Part shown: piece after piece, positions 1-43,988 of the stretch
Layout of the letters: every line of letters starts with the position of its first letter
How positions within the stretch are numbered: position 1 is the first letter of the stretch
IMG/VR virus record: IMGVR_UViG_3300028284_000003
Span: 1-64,000 of that record
From: a virus
Lineage: Duplodnaviria; Caudoviricetes
Direction: 5' to 3' (one strand)
Length of the DNA stretch: 64,000 nucleotides
The notes under the pieces: generated by a model
Database searches by the model: none
What the model was told of the DNA's origin: nothing
What the model saw: the letters and a program-made list of their open reading frames with translations, nothing else
Translations under genes and position numbers: made by a program

Positions 1-2
1 AA

Positions 3-833
3 TTAGATAGCATAAACAGACGTAAAGTCAAATACTGCCCTTGTGGAAAAAGCAATGCAGATGGAAAGTTTGTTCCTTTTAAAAATGCTGAGAAATTCGG
101 CTATTGTCATAGTTGTGACAAGTTAATGAAGCCAGACAATAAACCAGCTATTGACTGGGCTCCAATAAAGATGGAGAGAAAGCCAGAACCAAAACCAGAA
201 TATATCGATTGGGAGTATTATAAACCTTTGATGTATGACTACCATTTAAACGACAATAATAGATTTGTAGACTTCTTGTGTAGAGTTCTTGGAGTTCAAG
301 AAACACACTATATTTTACAAGACTACTTGTTAGGAAGCGGAAGCAATTTTACTGTAATATTTCCTTTTATAGACCATAATAAGAATATAGTTAATTTAAA
401 GACGATGGACTATGACCGAATGACTGGGAAGAGAGGTTCTTTGATATTTTATGACAAAAGAAAACCAAGACACAAAATGTGTTTTTTTGGTGGTCATTTA
501 GTTGATAGTGATAAGCATAAAGACAAACTAATAGCAATAGTAGAAAGTGAAAAAACAGCGTGTTTAATGTCTGTATTCAACCCCAACTATCTTTGGCTTG
601 CTTGTGGTGGTTCTAATGGTCTTAGCAGTCATAAATTTGATTATATAAAGTATAGAGAAATACATCTATTCCTAGACGAAGGAAAGTATAAACTTTGGAC
701 TGAAAAGCTGGAGAGACTCGAGCAGCTGCACCCTACTAATATTTTTAGAATATCTAAAGAGTGTGAAATCTGGTTTAAGGAAGGACACATCCAAAAAGGA
801 GATGACATAGCAGATTTTTATTTAAGGTTATGA
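3..833 (+). CDS. DUF6371-like primase/Toprim-related protein with N-terminal Zn ribbon, 5' end outside window
   Basis: Frame is open upstream of ATG126 to the window edge (..KYCPCGKSN..GYCHSCDK..). Toprim-like IVESEKTA, WLACGG, LFLDEG and GDDIADF motifs. Only convincing plus-strand gene. Confidence 0.65.
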   Translation, partial: LDSINRRKVKYCPCGKSNADGKFVPFKNAEKFGYCHSCDKLMKPDNKPAIDWAPIKMERKPEPKPEYIDWEYYKPLMYDYHLNDNNRFVDFLCRVLGVQETHYILQDYLLGSGSNFTVIFPFIDHNKNIVNLKTMDYDRMTGKRGSLIFYDKRKPRHKMCFFGGHLVDSDKHKDKLIAIVESEKTACLMSVFNPNYLWLACGGSNGLSSHKFDYIKYREIHLFLDEGKYKLWTEKLERLEQLHPTNIFRISKECEIWFKEGHIQKGDDIADFYLRL

Positions 834-917
834 CTTAGTTAAGAAAGCAAAGGGAGGGTTAGGTGATTAATTAGATTTTTAAGATATCTTCTTTTCAAAA
901 AAACACACCAACATTTT

Positions 918-1364
918 CTATATCCACCTTCTTGTAGTTTTTTTATACTCATCAAATTCCTCTTTGAATAAATTTTTCATTACTTTTTCTTCAGGTATAA
1001 TTTGATACTTTGTTATATAGGCACAAAATAAAGTAATAAATATAATTCCGCCTATTATATTAAAAAAGAGAGCAAGAGAACCTAATATAGTTGTCATTCC
1101 AAGATACATAGGATTTCTTGAGTACTTAAAAATTTTTTCTGTTACCAATTTTGTTGCTTTCTCTGGGTTTAAAGGGTTGACGGTTGTTTTACTACTTTTA
1201 AATGATGTTACTGCTGATATGAAGATAAAGAACCCCAAAAACATTAAAAATATACCAACATAAAAAGTAAGTTGATTTTCAATTGCTGGAAATATTCCTT
1301 TAGAAAAGTAAATTAATAATCCAAATACTAAAGTTACTATTGGTGGAGGAATTTTGGTTTCTAT
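918..1364 (-). CDS. Isoprenylcysteine carboxyl methyltransferase (ICMT/PEMT) family membrane protein
   Basis: TTVNP..LVT..FKYSRNPMYLG and IIPEE motifs. Frame extends upstream of the ORF-track start (1244) to ATA-GAA-ACC-AAA-ATT-CCT-CCA-CCA (xETKIPPP). Confidence 0.8.
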   Translation of the reverse strand: METKIPPPIVTLVFGLLIYFSKGIFPAIENQLTFYVGIFLMFLGFFIFISAVTSFKSSKTTVNPLNPEKATKLVTEKIFKYSRNPMYLGMTTILGSLALFFNIIGGIIFITLFCAYITKYQIIPEEKVMKNLFKEEFDEYKKTTRRWI

Positions 1365-1367
1365 TTT

Positions 1368-1628
1368 TCACCAAACATCAAACTCTACTTCTAATACTTT
1401 ATTGTCATCTTGGTCTCTGTATTCAACGTTGCCTATATTGTAACCAAGATCTAATATGATTCTATTTGATTTTTTGGCTTCTTCTGCATCTTCCTCTATT
1501 CCATTCATATCCCAAAAGGTGGCTATAAATGATTCTAAGATGTCTTCTTCTAGTGTGTCAGTTGTTGATTCCACATGGTGAAAACCCATGTCCTTTGTAT
1601 TAAGAAATTTAAAATATGCTTTACTCAT
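1368..1628 (-). CDS. Hypothetical acidic protein
   Basis: 86 aa ORF in a tightly packed operon. Confidence 0.6.
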   Translation of the reverse strand: MSKAYFKFLNTKDMGFHHVESTTDTLEEDILESFIATFWDMNGIEEDAEEAKKSNRIILDLGYNIGNVEYRDQDDNKVLEVEFDVW

Positions 1629-1641
1629 TATTTGGTGTTAG

Positions 1642-1758
1642 TTAACCCTGTCTTTGTTTATATCTAGGGTTAGATTTATTAATTATAAATAGTCTGCCTT
1701 TACGTCTTACTAGTTTATCTTCTGGGTGGCGTTTCTTAACGGATGCTCTTGTTTTCAT
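1642..1758 (-). CDS. rpmJ: 50S ribosomal protein bL36 (zinc-free type)
   Basis: Manual translation gives [38 protein letters not shown] (38 aa), the classic bL36 pattern. Below the ORF-track size cutoff. ATGA overlap with the upstream gene. Confidence 0.92.
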
Positions 1759-2012
1759 ATGGCTAACACATGATGTTCTCCGTCTTTGTTGATAATAACC
1801 TTTTCACGATCATATGATGGGCCGCCGATGCACCAAACTTCTGTGCCTTGTAGTTCAAAGTTCCAGTGTGTATCTAAGAACTGTAATACCTTTTCTTTTT
1901 GTTTACCCTTTATCTTAGACTTAAACTTAAGTTCATCAAATTTTCGAAGGGCTCTCTTCTTAGCAAGTTTATCTTGTAAGTTCTCTGCTGTAAATTGTTC
2001 GTACGTTTTCAT
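1755..2012 (-). CDS. Putative internal head protein with T4-like capsid targeting sequence
   Basis: N-terminus [10 protein letters not shown] versus T4 IPII/IPIII leader MKTYQEFIAE. Confidence 0.65.
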
Positions 2013-2479
2013 AGTTTTACTGTTATTGTATTGCCATCATCTTCAATGTCTTTTGGCTTTAAGTGTTTTTTGATATATGCCATATAAAGTTTGTTTCTTC
2101 TCTGATCTCCAGTCTCGTTTTTTGAACCTTCAAACTCTATATACTCTACTTCTGGATATTTTTTCATAAATGCTTTTACAATATCTACAACGGTTGCCAT
2201 AATTCTAAACAATTCACCTCTATTAGTAACTACCTCATAGTCTACTGTATATGATTTTGATTTTTTATTTTCAACCCCGTATTCTATTACTAAAACAAGA
2301 CCATGATTAAAATCTCTTCTATCTTCTATCTCTGTATTTACTTTATATGTTAAGTCAGAGTCTGTTTTGAATTGAGCATATGAAGTAAACCTTCCATCCA
2401 TCCATTTCCATTTATATGGCTTTGCGCCAGCATCACCTATCTCATTAATAAGCTCTTCGAATAGTTTTAAGTGTTTCAT
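2009..2479 (-). CDS. Putative internal head protein (CTS-like leader)
   Basis: MKHLKLFEELINE leader. Confidence 0.6.
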   Translation of the reverse strand: MKHLKLFEELINEIGDAGAKPYKWKWMDGRFTSYAQFKTDSDLTYKVNTEIEDRRDFNHGLVLVIEYGVENKKSKSYTVDYEVVTNRGELFRIMATVVDIVKAFMKKYPEVEYIEFEGSKNETGDQRRNKLYMAYIKKHLKPKDIEDDGNTITVKL

Positions 2480-2608
2480 ATATTATTTATCATATTTTTA
2501 CTACATTTTATTAAGAAAAGTATATATCACTACTAAGATAGCGATACCACTTATTATTAAAGTTCCTATCAATAATGTGTCTACAAATATACTCATAATT
2601 ATACTATC

Positions 2609-3208
2609 TTACTTTTTTAAATATTTAGATATTCTAAATATAGGCCAACTTGATCCTTTCCAATTATTCAACATTTCTTTTCTTTCAGGATGCCACTGTA
2701 CCAAGACTATTCTTTTTCCAACTGCACATTCAATAGTTCCATCATCTGCCCATAGTTGTGGCATTAAACAATCTGCTAAAATACTACAATGTTGATGATG
2801 TCTAGAATTAACATCGAAATGTAAATTATTTTTTTTAGAATTAACTCTATGGAAAACACTTCTTTTTCTCTGTACATTTTCTCCACCAAAGGTATCATCA
2901 ATTGCATGCATTCCTTCATTCCAAACATTTTCGACAACTCCACCTAAGTGTGAATTTACAAGTTGCATACCTCTACATATACCAATAATAGGTAAATTAT
3001 TTTCTAAAGACTGATCCACTAAGTTTTTTTCAAATTTATCTCTTTTTGGCCTTGTACCTACATCCGCTCCTCCGCATAAGAGAAGCCCTCCTTCAATTTT
3101 AGTATCTTTATCGGTTAATATTTTCCAATCTAAGTCATTTCTCTCTACCCATCTAATACATTCTTTTAAGTTTGTTTTAGACACGGGAGGAGCAATGCTT
3201 ATAATCAT
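2609..3208 (-). CDS. Class I glutamine amidotransferase / peptidase C26 (gamma-glutamyl hydrolase, PuuD-like)
   Basis: GGAD, GICRGMQ, VNSRHHQ and VQWHPE catalytic motifs. Confidence 0.88.
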   Translation of the reverse strand: MIISIAPPVSKTNLKECIRWVERNDLDWKILTDKDTKIEGGLLLCGGADVGTRPKRDKFEKNLVDQSLENNLPIIGICRGMQLVNSHLGGVVENVWNEGMHAIDDTFGGENVQRKRSVFHRVNSKKNNLHFDVNSRHHQHCSILADCLMPQLWADDGTIECAVGKRIVLVQWHPERKEMLNNWKGSSWPIFRISKYLKK

Positions 3209-3222
3209 ATTATATTTATTTA

Positions 3223-3537
3223 TTATTTCTTAGATAAAAGTTGTGAAAGAACACTAGTATTAGATAACTTATAAATATTACCATCATCACAACTTAAATC
3301 GGTTATCATAATTAAAAGATCAGTTTTCATACTGTTTAATTTATTAATATACTCAAGAGTTACAGTGTGGCCTATTTCACCAAGATCATCGTCCATTTTT
3401 AAAGTGTTTATAATATCATCTATTTTAATAATGTCTTCTTTTAAAGATAAAACATAGTCTTTAGATGTTATATTATTTTGATTGAAACCTATTAAAGAAA
3501 TTAAAGTTAAGCTAATTGTTATTATTGATTTTTTCAT
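3223..3537 (-). CDS. Hypothetical protein with signal peptide
   Basis: MKK plus hydrophobic N-terminus; directly after an early-type promoter. Confidence 0.6.
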   Translation of the reverse strand: MKKSIITISLTLISLIGFNQNNITSKDYVLSLKEDIIKIDDIINTLKMDDDLGEIGHTVTLEYINKLNSMKTDLLIMITDLSCDDGNIYKLSNTSVLSQLLSKK

Positions 3538-3555
3538 TATTTTTACGTTTTTAAA

Positions 3556-3630
3556 TTATAATACTAATATAACTATAATCTTTGACATAAAAAAATCTAG
3601 AGGCACTTATTTTTAAAAGTTATGAACAAT
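3556..3630 (-). promoter_or_regulatory. Early-type promoter repeat E1
   Basis: About 75 bp repeat; minus strand ends GTTATATTAGTATTATAA just before a start codon; 10 copies in the window. Confidence 0.75.
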
Positions 3631-3821
3631 TATAATTTTTCAAGCTCATTCTTAACCTTTATCCAGTAATTATATTGACTAGCAGTATAACTTTGTCTTT
3701 GTATATGATTTATTGCAATGATTGCACATTCTTTAGTTACACTTAATGGTACCATCATATCTTCTCCACATTTATACATTTCATTTAATATCTCTTGTGC
3801 TTTTACTTTAGGTTCTTTCAT
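3630..3821 (-). CDS. Hypothetical phage protein
   Basis: 63 aa ORF with YW..VK.ELEKL ending. Confidence 0.6.
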   Translation of the reverse strand: MKEPKVKAQEILNEMYKCGEDMMVPLSVTKECAIIAINHIQRQSYTASQYNYWIKVKNELEKL

Positions 3822-4123
3822 TAACTTATTTCTCCTTTATCTTCTATTAACTCTATTGCGTCTTCATCTTCTTTTTTCATTTGACAGGTAGCGCAACATC
3901 CATCTGCCCCATGAGTAATTTGCAATGGCTGAAACATAGCAACTAACATTGCCATCATTAAACCCATAAAATGCATTATTCTTTTCATGATTTATTACTA
4001 TAATGAGTATATAGCCCCCAAATACAGTAGCCTAAAACTACAAATAATAATATCTCTGGTATTATTACAGTTGTTATTAAACCGGCAATAATGAGTACCA
4101 TCCACATTAAGACTATTTCTTCT

Positions 4124-4405
4124 TTATTTTTCATATTCTAATTTTAAAAGTTGATTTGTTTTCATATTTACCCAATCCTCATCTTTTTCAGGATTTCTAA
4201 CATGTAGTAATTCATGAACAATTGATTCTTCACAAAGATCTATGTCGTGATAAATAGTGCCCTCCTTTTTATCAAAGTCTCTTTCAATAGCAACAAAGTA
4301 AGTTTCACCGCTATATTCTATTTGTTCCGGTAATATTCTTTCTGTTTTTATTTGCCAATCACTGATTCCAAATCTCAATTGCCACTTTTTTATTAGGAGT
4401 TCCAT
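4124..4405 (-). CDS. Small HEXXH metallopeptidase-like protein
   Basis: IVHELLH motif. Confidence 0.55.
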   Translation of the reverse strand: MELLIKKWQLRFGISDWQIKTERILPEQIEYSGETYFVAIERDFDKKEGTIYHDIDLCEESIVHELLHVRNPEKDEDWVNMKTNQLLKLEYEK

Positions 4406-4411
4406 CTATAA

Positions 4412-4437
4412 TTATATGATGGAATATAGGTTTGTTT
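4412..4437 (-). promoter_or_regulatory. AAAC-N16-ATATAA promoter (middle/ECF type)
   Basis: Plus strand TTATAT-N16-GTTT, just upstream of start 4405. Confidence 0.65.
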
Positions 4438-4627
4438 AATCTTCTATACAATCATTCATGCGTAAAATGAGTTGATCTCGCATCCAATTAAGTTCCTTTA
4501 ATGCATGTTCGGAAAGGCGATAACTACTCATTAGTGTATTTTCTAATTTATCAAGCTCTCTTTTGTTATCATAATAAATATGTTTCATATCTTCTCTAAT
4601 ATTTCCGAATTTAACTCTTCTAGCCAT
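4436..4627 (-). CDS. Hypothetical protein
   Basis: 63 aa ORF downstream of pckA. Confidence 0.5.
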   Translation of the reverse strand: MARRVKFGNIREDMKHIYYDNKRELDKLENTLMSSYRLSEHALKELNWMRDQLILRMNDCIED

Positions 4628-4636
4628 TGTTTACAT

Positions 4637-6190
4637 TTATTTTTTAATAGATTTATAATTTTCTTCAAATTGTTGCTGTAAAAATAATGCTTTTTTATCA
4701 TATTCTTCCCTGTCTTTCCAAGTTTCCTTTGGTATTAATACCTCTCCAGGAACATTAGGACATTCAATTGGCATTTTTAAACCAAATACTTTATGTGTAG
4801 CATATTCTACGTTGTCTAGCCATCCCTCTAAGGCAGCATTAATCATTGCTCTAGTATATTTTAGACTCATGCGCTCACCAACCCCATAAGGGCCTCCAGT
4901 CCAACCTGTATTAATTAACCATACATTGACATTTGACTCTTCCATTTTATCACCTAACATTTCTGCATATTTCATCGGGTGTAGTGGTAAAAATGGTGCT
5001 CCATAACAACTTGAAAACGTAGTCGTAGGCTCATCTATGCCATCTTCTGTACCTGCAACCTTTGCAGTATATCCAGAAATAAAATGGTACATTGCTTGCT
5101 CTTTATCTAATTTTGAAATAGGAGGTAAAACTCCAAATGCGTCTGCTGTTAAAAAGAAGATATTTTTAATATTATCACCCTTTGCACCTTCTGCTAAATT
5201 ATCAATATACTTTAATGGATAACTAACTCTTGTATTTTCAGTAATATCAGACCTTGTAAAATCCGGTTCATTAGTACCTTCTTTAAAAATTATATTTTCT
5301 AAAATTGCACCTGCTTTAATTGCGTTCCATATATCTGGCTCTTTCTCTTTTGAAAGATCAATACATTTTGCATAACATCCACCTTCAAAATTAAAAATTG
5401 TATTTTCATACCAACCATGTTCATCGTCTCCAATTAACATTCTATTTGGATCAGCAGACAATGTAGTTTTACCAGTACCTGAAAGTCCAAAAAATACAGC
5501 AGTATCTCCTCTTTTTCCAACATTAGCAGAACAATGCATTGATAATACATCATGTTTAACTGGTAATACAAAATTTAAAACTGAAAAAATACCTTTCTTA
5601 ATTTCACCAGTATATCCGGTACCTCCAATTAAAATAATCTTTTTTGTAAAATTAATAATTGCAAAGTTTTCTTGCCTAGTTCCATCAACTGTTGGATCTG
5701 CATCGAAACCTGGTATATTAATTAATTGCCATTCTGGTATAAAATTAGCTATTTCTTCTTCTTTGATGTTATTAAGCATATTACTTGCAAAGTGATTTGA
5801 CCATGCAAATTCATTAATAACTCTAACATTTAACTTAAATTCATTTACAGAACATGCATATACATCCCTAACATAAACTTCTTTGTTTTTAAGATATTTA
5901 AGCATTTTTTGATGTAATTGATCAAACTTATCTTCATTAAACGCAATATTAATATCGCCCCAATCTACAACTTCTCTTGTAACATCATCTTTAACGATAA
6001 ATCTATCCTTTGGCGATCTACCTGTAAATTTACCAGTTTTAATAGATAATGCACCTGTAGAAGTAAGCTCTCCTTGTTCTTTTTCTAATGTAATTTTAGT
6101 AAGCTCATCGGCTGTTAAATTCCAATAGGCGGCTTTAAGTCCTTTTATATTTAAGCTTAAATTATTAGGCATGTTTCCGTGATTTTTCAT
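4637..6190 (-). CDS. pckA: Phosphoenolpyruvate carboxykinase (ATP)
   Basis: TGRSPKD, YTGEIKK, MHCSAN, GLSGTGKTTLS, LIGDDEHGW and EGGCYAK motifs; full length. Confidence 0.97.
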   Translation of the reverse strand: MKNHGNMPNNLSLNIKGLKAAYWNLTADELTKITLEKEQGELTSTGALSIKTGKFTGRSPKDRFIVKDDVTREVVDWGDINIAFNEDKFDQLHQKMLKYLKNKEVYVRDVYACSVNEFKLNVRVINEFAWSNHFASNMLNNIKEEEIANFIPEWQLINIPGFDADPTVDGTRQENFAIINFTKKIILIGGTGYTGEIKKGIFSVLNFVLPVKHDVLSMHCSANVGKRGDTAVFFGLSGTGKTTLSADPNRMLIGDDEHGWYENTIFNFEGGCYAKCIDLSKEKEPDIWNAIKAGAILENIIFKEGTNEPDFTRSDITENTRVSYPLKYIDNLAEGAKGDNIKNIFFLTADAFGVLPPISKLDKEQAMYHFISGYTAKVAGTEDGIDEPTTTFSSCYGAPFLPLHPMKYAEMLGDKMEESNVNVWLINTGWTGGPYGVGERMSLKYTRAMINAALEGWLDNVEYATHKVFGLKMPIECPNVPGEVLIPKETWKDREEYDKKALFLQQQFEENYKSIKK

Positions 6191-8949: not shown

Positions 8950-10278
8950 CTATATGTTAGAGTTTTGTTTAATAAATGAGACTGTAATATATCTACGACC
9001 TGAATAAATTGGCCTTGCACCATGTCTATGTGTAATTTGACCAGGATGAATTGTTGCAGTTCCTACTCTCTCTGGATTTGACAATAAACCATATTTAGGA
9101 AAGTAAGTTCCACCTCCATCAAACTCATCATTTAACTTTACAACAAGACTTAAATGACTGTGATCATGGTGTAATGCTAAATGTGACTGTGCATCTGGTA
9201 AATACTTAACTAAAAAGTTTTCGTTATTTAATCTATCCCAACCTTTACCTTCAAGCTTCCAAATATGAATTGACATTGGTCTAATAATTTCATTTAAAAC
9301 CTTATCGTATATTTTATTCATGCCAATGTCTTGTAAAAGAACATCAGTTGTTGGATAGAATTTATGCCTTGCATGTGTCCAGTTGTTTAGTTCTTCTGTC
9401 ATTGCAATAATTTCATCACAGAAGGTTTTAGTAAACAGGGGAAACTCGTATACTTCATCTCCAATGTGATCTACTATCAAATCCCATTCACCTCGTTGAA
9501 TAATAGGATCTAAGTATCTTTGTTTCCATGTATCCCAATTAGAATCATCTAATATTTTATATTTTTTAAAAGGTTTACTATTTTCAGTTTGTGAAGTTTT
9601 TTTGTTTGAAGTTTGTGTAATATGTTCTCGTTTATGTGCATAAAAATTTAAAGTTGGCTTAAACAAGTCTGCTACGTCTTTTCTAAGATGTTTAATATAA
9701 GTTGCTGATAAAAATTCATCAGACGGTATTATATTATTTAAGAAGTCATATTTTAATATTTTTTCTAGGCCGCTTCTTGTTAAACAATATGATTGTGTAT
9801 TATAACTATAACTTGCTTTAAGCCAGTTTTTGCCTACCTCTTCCTCAACTGTATTTGGATTTACCTTATTTCTACCTAAATAAAAGCCATCTACGTTTTC
9901 TGGTAAATCACTTAAATCTAAATTTTCTAATGAATGTATAGGGTTAAAGTCTTCTTCTAAAAACAGGCAAAGATCATGACCTTCTTTATAAGCTTGCTTC
10001 CACATAAGATAATGACTTATTGCACATCCAATCTCTCCTTCTAAAATAGGTCTGTTCCACCAACTATTGGGATGATCCTTTAATTCCCATGATGAAAAAG
10101 GTTTCCACTTAATATCAGTGTTTGTTCCATTTACTCCTACTACAATTTCCCATTTAAACTTGTTTGGAATATTAAGACTGTGTAATTTATTTTTAAGCTT
10201 TTCGTTTTTAGAGTTTAAATTTAAAACAAAGGCCTTGTCAATTTGTTTAATTTTTTTATTTAAATTATAAATAGACAT
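8950..10278 (-). CDS. Fused GT25 (collagen galactosyltransferase-like) plus 2OG-Fe(II) lysyl hydroxylase (PLOD-like)
   Basis: GT25 half: GEIGCAISH..W, FLEEDF, YLGR, YSY..Y, IPSDEFL. PLOD half: FPLF..FCDE, PTTD, NFLVKY.PD.Q..L..HHD, EFDGGG, HPGQITH.H.....GRRYITVSF. Confidence 0.85.
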   Translation of the reverse strand: MSIYNLNKKIKQIDKAFVLNLNSKNEKLKNKLHSLNIPNKFKWEIVVGVNGTNTDIKWKPFSSWELKDHPNSWWNRPILEGEIGCAISHYLMWKQAYKEGHDLCLFLEEDFNPIHSLENLDLSDLPENVDGFYLGRNKVNPNTVEEEVGKNWLKASYSYNTQSYCLTRSGLEKILKYDFLNNIIPSDEFLSATYIKHLRKDVADLFKPTLNFYAHKREHITQTSNKKTSQTENSKPFKKYKILDDSNWDTWKQRYLDPIIQRGEWDLIVDHIGDEVYEFPLFTKTFCDEIIAMTEELNNWTHARHKFYPTTDVLLQDIGMNKIYDKVLNEIIRPMSIHIWKLEGKGWDRLNNENFLVKYLPDAQSHLALHHDHSHLSLVVKLNDEFDGGGTYFPKYGLLSNPERVGTATIHPGQITHRHGARPIYSGRRYITVSFIKQNSNI

Positions 10279-12440: not shown

Positions 12441-13613
12441 TTATTTTTTTATCTTTGGATGATTTTTAATTTCTTCTAAACATTGTTCCCAATTTCTAAA
12501 TAAGAATCCTCTATCATCTATATAAACAGTTGCTGGAAATTTATGATTACTTATCTCATCAATGAGGTGATCCATTTTATATTTTTCTAACCATTTTTTA
12601 ATAACATGTGCAGGTCTTGAAGATAATATTTTTAATACGAATCCTTCTTTAATAAATCCTTCTAGGGCTTCTTTAGTTCCTTCTTTTGGTGGATCGTATG
12701 CATTTTCAAGTCCTTGAAAACCTTTAGAGTAGTCATGAATAACTCCATCAAAGTCAATTGATAACGTTTTTTTCTTATCAAGGTTATTAACTTCTTTAAT
12801 TGTAGATAGCATTTGATTTTTATCTAAATAATCTATTAAATAATCAACTGAATCTTCTATATTTAAATTATCTAATCTTAACTCTGCGTTTAATGGCTCT
12901 TCATAAGGAGCATCAATACCTGTAAATCCTTTAATTTCACCAGCTCTTGCTTTTTTATAAAGTCCTTTAGGATCTCTACTTTCACAAACGTCAAGTGGAG
13001 TGTCTATAAATACTTCAACAAAATCTTCACCTATTATTTCTCTAGCAAAATCTCTATCTTCTCTATAAGGTGAAATAAATGCAGTTAATACAATTGTTCC
13101 TGAATCTGCAAAAAGTTTTGCAACCTCACTTATTCTTCTAATATTTTCTTTTCTATCTTCAGGTGAAAAACTAAGATCTCCATTTAGACCCATTCTAATG
13201 TTATCACCATCTAAGATATATGTTTTTAAGTTTCTTCCATTTAATACCTCATCAAGTGCATTTGCAATTGTTGATTTACCACTACCTGAAAGTCCAGTAA
13301 ACCAAAGCACTCTACCTGGATGCCCTGTTACCTTTTGTCTTTGTTCTTTACTTACTGTAAAGTTATGTTTAGTTAAGTTAGTTGCCATTCTTTTTTTTCT
13401 TTTTATTCCTATATTGCTGAATTTATACCAAAGCCTTTCATGGGCATAATACAAAAACATTTTAGTAAATAATTCAGCTCCTCCAATTGATAGTCCAATT
13501 AAAGGATTGCCACTGATTATCCAACTTAAAATTATAGTATCTATTGTTCCTAAAACTCTCCAAGTAAACGTCTTTAAAAGATGTCTTTTTATAGATATTT
13601 TTTCGGAGCTCAT
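12441..13613 (-). CDS. cysC: DUF2061 - adenylyl-sulfate kinase - HAD phosphatase fusion
   Basis: N-terminal [15 protein letters not shown]. Kinase [36 protein letters not shown]-terminal IDFDGV..SSR..YIDDR. Confidence 0.9.
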
Positions 13614-15285: not shown

Positions 15286-15371
<86 letters not shown>

Positions 15372-15381
15372 GTTTTTTTTG

Positions 15382-15455
15382 CGGTCTGGACGAGACTCGA
15401 ACTCGCGACCCCTGCAGTGACAGTGCAGTATTCTAACCAACTGAACTACCAGACC
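15382..15455 (-). tRNA. tRNA-Asp(GUC)
   Basis: CTGCA-CTGTCAC-TGCAG anticodon arm, GTTCGAGTC; no CCA. Confidence 0.95.
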
Positions 15456-15474
15456 GTTAAACTATATATCAGTG

Positions 15475-15548
15475 TAGGCGGTGCTGGATTTGAACCAGCG
15501 ACCTCTACATTATCAGTGTAGCGCTCTAACCAACTGAGCTAAACGCCT
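15475..15548 (-). tRNA. tRNA-Ile(GAU)
   Basis: CTACA-CTGATAA-TGTAG anticodon arm; one acceptor-stem mismatch; no CCA. Confidence 0.92.
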
Positions 15549-15557
15549 GTAATAAAA

Positions 15558-15628
15558 TTACCGGGGAAGGATTCGAACCTCCGTTACCTGGACCAAAACC
15601 AGGAGTCCTGCCGCTAGACGACCCGGTA
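15558..15628 (-). tRNA. tRNA-Gln(UUG)
   Basis: CCTGG-TTTTGGT-CCAGG anticodon arm; no CCA. Confidence 0.93.
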
Positions 15629-15637
15629 TTAAAGAAA

Positions 15638-15709
15638 TACTCCGTAGGGGAATCGAACCCCTGTTTTATGGATGAAAACCATATGTCCTAACCCCTAGAC
15701 GAACGGAGC
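15638..15709 (-). tRNA. tRNA-Glu(UUC)
   Basis: TATGG-TTTTCAT-CCATA anticodon arm; no CCA. Confidence 0.93.
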
Positions 15710-15723
15710 AAATTTATTGATTA

Positions 15724-19146: not shown

Positions 19147-19269
19147 GAGGTGTCCTATAACTTGACCGGCAGTCTTGTGAACGAGAAAGGATTCGAACCT
19201 TTGACCGATAGCTTAGAAGGCTATTGCTCTATCCAACTGAGCTACTCGTCCGTGAGTATAGGACACCTC
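19147..19269. repeat. Perfect 13 bp inverted repeat enclosing tRNA-Arg
   Basis: GAGGTGTCCTATA (19147-19159) and TATAGGACACCTC (19257-19269). Confidence 0.85.
19178..19251 (-). tRNA. tRNA-Arg(UCU)
   Basis: ATAGC-CTTCTAA-GCTAT anticodon arm; no CCA. Confidence 0.95.
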
Positions 19270-19864: not shown

Positions 19865-19875
19865 TTTATTTATAG

Positions 19876-19959
19876 TACCCAGGGCGGGACTTGAACCCGC
19901 ACGAACAAATGTCCACAAGATTTTAAGTCTTGCGTGTCTACCAATTCCACCACCTAGGC
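19876..19959 (-). tRNA. tRNA-Leu(UAA)
   Basis: CAAGA-CTTAAAA-TCTTG anticodon arm, long variable arm; no CCA. Confidence 0.95.
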
Positions 19960-34820: not shown

Positions 34821-35182
34821 TATTTAGGTTCTCTGAGAAAAGTGTCTCTATATTTAAAGTTTCTGTTTCTACCACTGTTTGGCTTAAAGCCAAAGCTTTT
34901 GTAGAATTTTTTAAGTCTACCAAGATTACTACCAAACTCATCAACTGGAGTAACTCCAACTGTCTTTCCTTCTCGGTCAGCGCGGGTGACTAACATGTTC
35001 ATTATATCACTACCAAGCCCCTCGTTTCTAAATTGCGGTTTAATTATTATCTGATCTAAATAAATGCTGTCTGTGTCCTCGAATATCCACAGCGAGTTAA
35101 TCTTATCGCCATATAACATATCAATCTCTTTCATTAAAGGAGACTTCTTCTGAAACTCATCATATGACTTTATATTTCTCAT
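34820..35182 (-). CDS. GNAT-family acetyltransferase with CTS-like leader
   Basis: FRNEGLGS motif A and LKKFYKSFGF; MRNIKSYDEF leader. Confidence 0.8.
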   Translation of the reverse strand: MRNIKSYDEFQKKSPLMKEIDMLYGDKINSLWIFEDTDSIYLDQIIIKPQFRNEGLGSDIMNMLVTRADREGKTVGVTPVDEFGSNLGRLKKFYKSFGFKPNSGRNRNFKYRDTFLREPK

Positions 35183-36330
35183 AACAACTCTCTAAACTTC
35201 TCTGCTTCTATTTCTCTAATCTTTTGTGCAACTTCAGGCCCTTTAACACCAAAGTCTTTCATTACAGTTCTACCATCAGTTGATGGCTTATATTTTAGGA
35301 AGGCTTTAACCATCCTTGTATTTAATCTGTTTAAACGACTCCAATCTAGGATAGTTCTTTTATCTATATCTGTTGTTTGATATTTTTTGTAGAGTTCAAA
35401 TATTTCTTCTGGTTTAATATCCAGTAAATTCTTTAAAAATACAACGGTGTCTATTTCTTCATTTGAAAATGTAAGTTTATTTAATCTTTTCTTAATTGTG
35501 TCAACTTCATTATCTCTAAAAAGTGTTGCAATTTGAATCATCCAATTTTTATTATCAATAAATGTCTTATTAATATTAATATCTGGAAACATTACTCCCC
35601 ATAATTTAAACTCCTCAACCATTTCTAAATATTTTTTAGTTGACTTTGCCGAAATTACTGACTTTTTAAATTCATCTCTAATTCTTTCACTACTTATATC
35701 CTTTAAAGAATTATCGGATATTATAGCCTCAGCGGTATTCTTTTCTAATTTACTTCCTGTGCGGCCTGCAAATCTTAAGGCTCTTAGTTTTCTTAGGGGA
35801 TCTTCATCAAACCTCTCTTGAGCTCTTCCGACTGTTCTAATAGTATTACTTTGAATATCTGCAACTCCTCCAACCAGGTCAACTACCTTTTGTTTATCAA
35901 TATCATAAAATAAAGCGTTGATAGTTAAATCTCTCCTTAATACATCTTTATCAATTGTTGAGTATTCGACAGCATCAGGTCTTCGACCTTTACCAATATC
36001 TTCTCTAAATGTAGCAATTTCCATACCCTCTTTAAAACTTGGAGTCTTTGCAATAACAACTCCAAATTGTTGACCAACTTCTCCGACTGTATCAAACCCT
36101 CCAGACTTTAATATATCTATAACTTCACCTGGCTTAGCATCTGTTGCTAAATCAAAATCTTTAGGTTTTTGACCAAGAAGAGCATCTCTAACAGCTCCAC
36201 CTACAATATACAATTCCTTCTTATTTTTCTTAAAAAGTTTATGTAAATCTTTAACATCTCTAGGGACATATAAATTTAAACTCTGTTGAGCTTCTAAAAG
36301 CAATATGAATTGAGACATTGGTTTAATCAT
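35179..36330 (-). CDS. cca: CCA-adding tRNA nucleotidyltransferase (class II)
   Basis: VGGAVRD..KDFDLAT, EIATFR, RRDLTINAL, RFDEDPLR.LRALRF and SSERI.DE motifs. Confidence 0.88.
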   Translation of the reverse strand: MIKPMSQFILLLEAQQSLNLYVPRDVKDLHKLFKKNKKELYIVGGAVRDALLGQKPKDFDLATDAKPGEVIDILKSGGFDTVGEVGQQFGVVIAKTPSFKEGMEIATFREDIGKGRRPDAVEYSTIDKDVLRRDLTINALFYDIDKQKVVDLVGGVADIQSNTIRTVGRAQERFDEDPLRKLRALRFAGRTGSKLEKNTAEAIISDNSLKDISSERIRDEFKKSVISAKSTKKYLEMVEEFKLWGVMFPDININKTFIDNKNWMIQIATLFRDNEVDTIKKRLNKLTFSNEEIDTVVFLKNLLDIKPEEIFELYKKYQTTDIDKRTILDWSRLNRLNTRMVKAFLKYKPSTDGRTVMKDFGVKGPEVAQKIREIEAEKFRELL

Positions 36331-42115: not shown

Positions 42116-42128
42116 AATTTTTATTTAG

Positions 42129-42202
42129 AGCCTTTGGAGGGACTCGAACCCACGACCTGCTGATTACAAATCAGCTGCTCTAGCCAGCTGAGCTACAAAG
42201 GC
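42129..42202 (-). tRNA. tRNA-Thr(UGU)
   Basis: GCTGA-TTTGTAA-TCAGC anticodon arm; no CCA. Confidence 0.95.
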
Positions 42203-43901: not shown

Positions 43902-43914
43902 AATTTAAAAATAG

Positions 43915-43988
43915 TGGAGGATATCGGAGTCGAACCGATGACCTCCTGCGTGCAAGGCAGGCGCTCTAGCCAGCTGAGCTAATCCCCC
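43915..43988 (-). tRNA. tRNA-Ala(UGC)
   Basis: GGGGGAT/ATCCTCC acceptor with G3:U70; CCTGC-CTTGCAC-GCAGG anticodon arm; no CCA. Confidence 0.96.

Follow-up and report, generated by a model that had tools for sequence, protein, structure and literature searches.

A cysteine-free ribosomal protein bL36 encoded by a marine jumbo myophage lineage

The DNA analysed here (the window) comprises the first 64,000 nucleotides of the IMG/VR virus record IMGVR_UViG_3300028284_000003, which has 107,642 bases and is estimated to be 37% complete, and close to its start it encodes a genuine, full-length ribosomal protein bL36 (gene rpmJ) that is devoid of cysteine. Virus-encoded ribosomal proteins are already known, with bS21 and bL12 as the usual ones and bL31, bL33 and others also found (PMC6375957), while bL36 as a member of this set is new to the searchable texts. 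A preliminary description of the window had likewise stated that phage ribosomal proteins are uncommon and mostly bS21 and bL12, in agreement with that survey. We consider it fairly probable that infected cells produce the phage bL36, by translation coupled to the genes upstream of it, and that it takes the normal bL36 site of the host 50S subunit, either by completing particles or by exchange. The gene is as follows:

1642..1758, minus strand: bL36 (rpmJ) gene, 38 codons and a TAA stop, cysteine-free

The predicted protein matches the Pfam family Ribosomal_L36 (PF00444) over positions 1-38/38 with 69.1 bits (E 3.3e-19, cut-off 26.1) and the NCBIfam model rpmJ_bact (TIGR01022) with 42.2 bits (cut-off 22.7), and with the Pfam match being full length, 1642-1758 is not a chance open reading frame (ORF). 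The hidden Markov model check proposed in the preliminary description thus bears out its call of a true bL36, and the 38-residue, cysteine-free protein is exactly as quoted there, on the minus strand, with many stops in the plus-strand reading of the same positions. As also stated there, the gene was missing from the ORF list, which fits its length of 38 amino acids (aa), below the default 60-aa listing; tiny genes such as bL36 escape standard ORF calling as well as phage family libraries, and no PHROG family is matched by the phage protein. It has the size of the family (37-38 aa), the basic core and the C-terminal KQRQG, with an isoelectric point (pI) of 11.9, and the gene, which has 33% GC against 30.5% for the window, is the only L36 match in the phage record. 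An AlphaFold2 model made with 90 sequences (pLDDT 84.1) has a beta-hairpin at 15-19/22-26, and the top 43 matches to it in a Foldseek search of the PDB are all L36, as ribosomal chains or as free L36, with the best superpositions on bL36 of Porphyromonas gingivalis (template modelling score, TM, 0.82; 80% identity) and Flavobacterium johnsoniae (TM 0.81; 74%). In an alignment of 90 rows, namely 83 distinct cellular L36s, selected C- and INK-type, and 7 rows of the phage lineage including the query, 14 columns are invariant (M1, K9, K15, V17, R19, G21, I26, N27, K28, P31, K34, Q35, R36 and Q37), and the phage protein deviates at one of the nine nearly invariant columns, by the conservative change of Y24 to F. 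Being a stoichiometric component of the 50S subunit is a trait of the family, and for the phage copy it is predicted.

Zinc-binding (C+, type A) bL36 is recognized by the signature Cys-x2-Cys...Cys...His at positions 11, 14, 27 and 33, which the phage protein lacks: in a gap-free alignment to the zinc-type chain 8rd8_ep, the columns of Cys11, Cys14, Cys27 and His33 are occupied by H11, D14, N27 and Y33, hence all zinc ligands are gone, as had been claimed. Ranked by bits to the phage protein, the solved chains are 9i5t (58.7), 7jil (52) and 6i7v, E. coli (Escherichia coli) 'L36 2' (39). The first two are the Bacteroidota bL36s of the P. gingivalis 50S subunit (9i5t chain 8) and the F. johnsoniae 70S ribosome (7jil chain f), which are 38 aa long, align gap-free with the phage protein and share with it the zinc-poor core RRKGRL(Y/F)(V/I)INK, N27 and Y/F33; they carry one cysteine, at position 14, whereas the phage has D14, and H11, L16, F24 and S29 are the phage's own in this comparison. 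The third, YkgO or bL36B (6i7v chain C5), is the Zur-regulated paralogue of a zinc-binding copy (PMC7363858); it has no zinc site either and has RHP(E/D)..V.RKGRL.(I/V)I.KSNPR(Y/F)K in common with the phage protein, but it is 45 aa long in the PDB chain, is aligned from residue 8 and still has a cysteine, in contrast to the 38 aa of the phage. The phage protein falls short of the type B L36 definition: it scores 68.2 bits with the type B model NF002021, narrowly below the 70-bit cut-off, and has neither the length of 41-46 aa with an extended N-terminus nor a zinc-binding paralogue alongside.

Its closest relatives are L36s of the Bacteroidota group, at 74-84% identity, and the cysteine-free form is common there. 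When one genome per prokaryotic species was scanned for the core [ED]DK.VRRKGR.[FY][IV]INK, at least 120 loci were recovered; among the matches listed, 118 of 120 loci encode a cysteine-free L36 of 38-39 aa, the sources of these being Rhodothermales, Balneolaceae, Kapaibacteria, Ignavibacteria, Chloroherpeton, metagenome-assembled genomes (MAGs) of Bacteroidales and Flavobacteriales, Kiritimatiellota and Saccharibacteria, and the best identities among them are 32/38 (a Kapabacteria MAG) and 31/38. Cysteine-free cellular bL36s (Kapabacteria, Rhodothermales, Balneolales, some Bacteroidales and Flavobacteriales MAGs, Saccharibacteria) have D14 and N27 as in the phage, and one Bacteroidales MAG even has the phage's KKRHPEDK, in a locus that reads map-infA-rpmJ-rpsM-rpsK; these cellular genes differ from the phage gene in being single-copy and part of the ribosomal operon, and the phage clade is set apart from them by a long stem. 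In a sample of 401 genomes from the phylum to which a Flavobacteriales MAG belongs, one L36 match was obtained in 386, with a best identity of 79% and a bimodal distribution of E-values, and all five weak-match genomes opened in that GTDB phylum have the classic zinc form with three cysteines and a histidine. The 'Zn-independent Bacteroidota pattern' of the preliminary description therefore stands in so far as cysteine-free forms are common in the group, with Saccharibacteria in addition, and falls short as a rule for the phylum, given the one cysteine of the solved chains and the zinc form in those five genomes.

A tree was computed from 119 distinct sequences over 38 columns, with identical rows merged and with L057, L061 and L126 (no recognizable L36) and the duplicates L132-L136 left out; as representatives, the first 30 of 150 listed were considered and 22 added, the listed ones being mis-extended calls of at least 43 aa. 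In this tree, the 13 phage variants group together as a single clade (support 99/97), which is placed beside a Bacteroidales MAG (99/82) and then a Kapabacteria MAG (97/92), both cysteine-free. As the phage clade is nested among cysteine-free cellular L36s, the cysteine-free state would have come from the donor, and it is most likely that the phage bL36 was captured from a bacterium of the Bacteroidota group and that its lost cysteines were inherited from this zinc-free donor rather than evolved in the phage. The replacement of all four ligand positions, the use of zinc-free paralogues for this purpose in E. coli and other bacteria (PMC9976891, PMC7363858) and the zinc form found in the five opened genomes of the same GTDB phylum could also be taken to mean that the phage swaps a zinc-binding host bL36 for its own in order to release zinc or to make zinc-free ribosomes. 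This is very unlikely, however, in view of the nesting of the phage clade, the single cysteine of the solved Bacteroidota chains and the Flavobacteriales MAGs that are cysteine-free among the matches listed: the likely hosts would have no zinc at bL36 and the cysteine-free state would predate the capture, so that a swap would free no zinc, and the zinc release suggested in the preliminary description is not borne out for the probable hosts given below.

The gene belongs to the virus. Its neighbours are phage ORFs with no ribosomal family among them, and none of map, infA, rpsM and rpsK, the set that accompanies rpmJ in the nearest cellular relative, is found around it; the infA-rpmJ-rpsM position, which Bacteroidota bL36 genes occupy between infA and rpsM in contrast to the phage locus, is typical of the family and not a requirement for membership. 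The window also has genes for a tail sheath and tail fibres, for an ATP-dependent DNA ligase and for a CCA-adding enzyme (35179-36330), so that bL36 lies inside a bona fide viral genome. The record is collinear over 93.8 of its 107.6 kb, at ~90% identity, with a viral contig of 204,977 bases that is rated 75% complete (G004, hereafter the 205-kb relative), and the completeness estimates of the two suggest that the full genome has roughly 270-290 kb. Contamination with host DNA or a chimeric assembly, which is what most other L36 matches in 'phage' database entries look like (Acinetobacter phage MD-2021a; an UNVERIFIED_ORG record), is excluded here, since the junctions are shared by five viral contigs that were assembled independently, the composition is phage-like, the 205-kb phage contig is collinear and ribosomal-operon neighbours are missing; the preliminary description, which had named contamination as one finding that would overturn it, was right to regard the gene as phage-encoded. 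The lineage is a marine jumbo T4-like myophage, and the record contains the following protease gene:

79392-79739 of the 107-kb record: T4-type prohead protease domain PF03420 (Pfam, 44.8 bits)

The tail sheath is closest to those of uncultured huge phages (52%), followed by the Tenacibaculum phages PTm1/PTm5/pT24 (40%) and the Prevotella Lak phages (35%). Of 95 long ORFs, 6 have a Shine-Dalgarno-like core in front of them, with a background of 7.3%, and the untranslated leaders are A-rich, as would suit a Bacteroidia host; A-rich leaders without Shine-Dalgarno sequences go with the class Bacteroidia. One homologue of the 86-aa protein encoded next to bL36 (see below) is named by NCBI as stemming from a Flavobacteriales MAG, and taken together the host probably belongs to the Bacteroidota group.

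Phage-borne L36 is very rare, being found in one lineage in the IMG/VR motif scans and in one huge phage in GenBank. The IMG/VR scans used the exact pattern KG-x8/9-P-x2-KQRQG-stop with 38- and 37-residue spacings, which divergent L36s would escape, and they recovered this lineage only, together with an L36 of the zinc type that lies at one end of a contig of 4.2 kb (L168); two further hits, L166 and L167, were discarded as chance matches. A tblastn search of 50,697 GenBank phage records gave 15 records with an L36 match, the best two, LR756501 and LR756503, representing an uncultured huge phage of 735 kb, and of two further matches that were inspected one lies in a bacterial rpsE...rpoA operon and one is flagged UNVERIFIED_ORG. 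The entry 'Acinetobacter phage MD-2021a' (CAKLQF020000004.1/CAKLQH020000003.1) contains a complete rpsE-rpmD-rplO-secY-rpmJ-rpsM-rpsK-rpsD-rpoA set, and this 240-kb contig, at the least, is of bacterial origin and has been misfiled under phages. The L36 of LR756501 (77 bits with Pfam, 55% identical) is the only other credible phage-borne L36 found; as in the present phage it has no ribosomal-operon neighbours and lies among genes for adenylosuccinate synthetase, RtcB and DUF proteins, but it has two cysteines and groups with one-Cys Bacteroidia-type sequences, whereas the present phage protein is cysteine-free. That both phage L36s go back to one origin was not rejected by an AU test (p = 0.188). 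In the literature, no report of a phage-encoded bL36 or rpmJ was found in searchable paper text, and L36 is unmentioned in the main texts of Mizuno 2019 (PMC6375957, accessible parts), Al-Shayeb 2020 and the PhiMa05 paper with its comment, the supplementary tables of which may list it.

The phage bL36 is conserved together with its immediate neighbours, which are the following:

1755..2012, minus strand: 85-aa basic protein (pI 9.2), putatively capsid-targeted (internal or ejected), with a leader like the T4 capsid-targeting sequence
2009..2479, minus strand: 156-aa protein with a DUF6934 domain (Pfam, 37.8 bits) and the leader MKHLKLFEELINE, assigned by Pfam and the leader pattern
1368..1628, minus strand: 86-aa protein, acidic (pI 4.2) and without a known family, whose start lies 13 nt past the bL36 stop
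1362..2019, minus strand: three-gene block of the 85-aa gene, bL36 and the 86-aa gene, conserved amid variable flanks

The 658-bp block at 1362-2019 is 96.7% identical in nucleotides to all four related IMG/VR contigs, while the adjoining stretches differ or are missing. A search with a back-translated DNA pattern showed that an identical bL36 protein is encoded on all four of these contigs, with two synonymous and no non-synonymous differences in the gene, and the 85-aa gene likewise differs from that of the 205-kb relative by seven synonymous and no non-synonymous codon changes, a pattern of purifying selection on the viral copy, seen in a small sample. The exact bL36 sequence occurs on 85 contigs of a large protein collection, and its cluster at 90% identity holds 13 variants, all with H11, D14, N27 and Y33 and with conservative changes only. 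Parts of the stretch were found in public runs amounting to 20 rows from 16 studies, all of them marine, seawater or viral metagenomes. In two of four RNA runs, metatranscriptome contigs span the whole bL36 gene and extend into both neighbours (X16, 1563-1885; X17, 1477-2019), and in a third (X18) the gene is covered in parts, hence it is apparently transcribed.

The flanks behave differently. Positions 1-4700 of the window are hypervariable relative to the 205-kb relative and to the locus L002 despite ~90% identity, and the 205-kb relative has a glycosyltransferase-like ORF, a 136-aa leader protein and a SET-domain protein there instead. No match to phosphoenolpyruvate carboxykinase (PEPCK), the 156-aa DUF6934 ORF (by tblastn), a class-I glutamine amidotransferase/peptidase C26, a PEMT-like methyltransferase or DUF6371 was found in the 205-kb relative, and in place of the 156-aa gene it has, upstream of its 85-aa ORF, the gene of that different 136-aa protein, which starts with MKTYEEFINE. 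Such a hypervariable accessory-gene locus, together with the view that ribosomal-protein genes are randomly sampled from hosts (PMC6375957), would suit a functionless passenger, recently picked up with host DNA and drifting to loss, yet this is distinctly unlikely for bL36: the block is kept amid its varying flanks with only synonymous change in bL36 and the 85-aa gene, the composition of bL36 is phage-like, a divergence of ~16-21% from every cellular L36 found speaks against a recent pick-up, and the sequence recurs on the 85 contigs and in the runs of the 16 studies.

On its upstream side, bL36 is joined to genes whose products may be packaged in the head. Its ATG is overlapped by the TGA stop of the 85-aa ORF (ATGA), and the start of the 85-aa ORF is overlapped in the same way by the stop of the 156-aa ORF, which confirms both overlaps of the coupling that had been described; a fusion of the 85-aa protein with bL36 by -1 frameshifting was considered and dropped, as GCC ATA TGA offers no slippery heptamer. 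The T4 capsid-targeting sequence is MKTYQEFIAE (PMC8442874), and the N-termini of the two upstream proteins resemble it, as the preliminary description had noticed; head proteases of the T4 type cleave after Glu and thereby strip internal proteins of such propeptides (PMC5694885). The leader pattern takes the forms MKTYE(E/Q)F..E, M..KLFEEF(I/L/V)NE and MATFEEFLNE, heads unrelated proteins with bodies of 85-817 aa, and was found on five ORFs of the 107-kb record, where by a rough estimate ~0.01 are expected by chance, and on seven of the 205-kb relative:

1755-2012, 2009-2479, 101173-101655, 101666-101977 and 103635-105755 of the 107-kb record, minus strand: ORFs with the leader pattern
55789, 59139, 62997, 63327, 110575, 176438 and 176862 of the 205-kb relative (G004): ORFs with the leader pattern

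Short, Glu-ended N-terminal leaders on unrelated proteins, in a genome that also encodes a T4-type prohead protease, are what characterizes T4 internal proteins, and leader and protease together probably mark the capsid-targeted or ejected proteins of this phage, so that the leader family could serve as a ready marker of the ejected-protein repertoire in jumbo phages of Bacteroidota. In contrast to the T4 internal proteins, cleavage of the leader and packaging are predictions here, and bL36 itself is leaderless; it looks as if it sits within a seemingly plastic locus of genes for capsid-targeted proteins.

The other two members of the block have few relatives. The 85-aa protein matched no Pfam or PHROG family and its relatives are four close proteins only; for the 86-aa protein there was no Pfam or PHROG family either, and an Atlas search gave only sub-0.9 matches to unnamed clusters. 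The homologues of the latter are confined to this lineage (12 proteins, at least 80% identity), and within IMG/VR it occurs only on the four contigs that also carry bL36. A complex prediction for bL36 and the 86-aa protein scored 0.00, which counts neither way. A scan for sigma-70 promoters and terminators yielded 18 sites against 14.7 expected.

This setting raises the possibility that the L36 has been repurposed outside the ribosome, as a small basic nucleic-acid binder for head assembly or DNA ejection that travels with its capsid-targeted neighbours or neutralizes charge. Its coupling right behind genes with leaders like that of T4, the prohead protease in the record, the high pI, the long stem of the phage clade and the acidic 86-aa partner that the block always has all fit this idea; we nevertheless hold it to be quite improbable, as bL36 has no leader of its own, keeps all invariant columns of C-type cellular L36s and the nearly invariant ones except for Y24F, shows substitutions that lie inside cellular variation, as ribosomal constraint predicts, and resembles no phage head family (0 PHROG families).

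We favour a ribosomal role for the phage bL36 instead, as the departure from the invariant and nearly invariant columns by Y24F alone makes the normal bL36 site the most likely one. The protein would be produced during infection by stop-start coupling behind the leader-bearing genes and would then occupy the bL36 site of the host 50S subunit, between the 23S rRNA helices H42 and H97. Two routes to this site are conceivable. Late pre-50S particles are typically without bL36 (PMC11260487), and the phage protein might finish them; alternatively, it might displace the host copy in the way bL36B does with bL36A in E. coli, where bL36A ribosomes give way to bL36B ribosomes in stationary phase (PMC7363858). 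By either route, translation capacity could be kept or tuned once the synthesis of host ribosomal proteins is off, which would be the benefit to the phage. With its single captured gene, aquatic occurrence, purifying selection and presumed replacement of a host protein, the system resembles the virus-encoded ribosomal proteins described before (PMC6375957). A remodelling of host ribosomes by the phage, as first put forward in the preliminary description, is plausible.

Several points weigh against this picture. Entry of the phage bL36 into ribosomes is inferred, and in the accessible text of PMC6375957 incorporation into host ribosomes is shown for bS21 and bL12 only. Viruses are generally held to take ribosomal proteins of the surface, which are bound loosely and can be exchanged, and the viral set of the same survey is enriched in such 'dynamic' proteins; bL36, a buried core protein of the 50S subunit that assembles late, departs from this view. 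The stem of the phage clade is long, with 0.3 changes per site where the median tip has 0.031, and could mean a changed function, and the 38 columns of the tree make the placement of the clade no more than indicative. At the nucleotide level the evidence for selection comes from two alleles only; in one of the four RNA runs (X15) the bL36 gene is not covered by any contig, and the RNA evidence as a whole consists of assembled contigs without strand or depth, with DNA carry-over possible. Lastly, the host group is itself inferred, from the tail sheath, the leaders and the name of a MAG. The departure is also what makes the case worth attention: bL36 is the smallest ribosomal protein and a late joiner, which helps to lock the region for uL16 and for maturing the functional core, and its presence in a widespread marine phage lineage raises the question of whether phages can intervene in the final stages of large-subunit assembly or in the exchange of bL36.

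The 205-kb relative additionally encodes a 63-aa bS21 (Pfam, 34.5 bits; G004:C1:3039-3188, locus L169 1492-1683) between DnaJ-like and PhoH-like genes, in a region that lies beyond the reach of the present 107-kb record. Two ribosomal proteins in one virus compare with two per contig in 8/1403 contigs of the earlier survey (PMC6375957), and bS21 and bL36 point to a lineage that may manipulate ribosomes; the L12, L31 and L33 families gave no match in the record or the four related contigs (G000-G004), all of which are fragments, so that absence does not follow. A more far-reaching proposal, which we consider unlikely, is that the phage builds ribosomes of its own with bL36 in the large and bS21 in the small subunit, where bL36 would finish stalled pre-50S particles lacking bL36/uL16 or mark ribosomes for phage messages. 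In this proposal the virion might even contain bL36 and deliver it along with the DNA, which is conceivable because its gene is coupled to, and lies within, the capsid-targeted locus.

The phage's load of translation-related genes is enlarged further by the CCA-adding enzyme mentioned above and by tRNA genes:

15286-15710, 19177-19251, 19875-19959, 42128-42202 and 43914-43988, minus strand: nine tRNA genes, for Ser, Asp, Ile, Gln and Glu in one cluster and for Arg, Leu, Thr and Ala elsewhere

Among the remaining genes of the window, that for PEPCK (ATP-dependent, full length, Pfam 725 bits; 4637-6190, minus strand) is an unusual auxiliary metabolic gene, which has no match in the 205-kb relative or in the matching place of L002 and shares 69% DNA identity with part of LR756504, a huge phage of 636 kb. 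Two further genes on the minus strand encode fusion proteins. In the product of one (12441-13613), an APS kinase domain (235 bits) is fused to DUF2061 and to a C-terminus resembling sugar isomerases, in that of the other (8950-10278) a glycosyltransferase-25 domain is paired with one that resembles 2OG-Fe(II) oxygenases, and both may be accessory genes for surface polysaccharides or sulphation.

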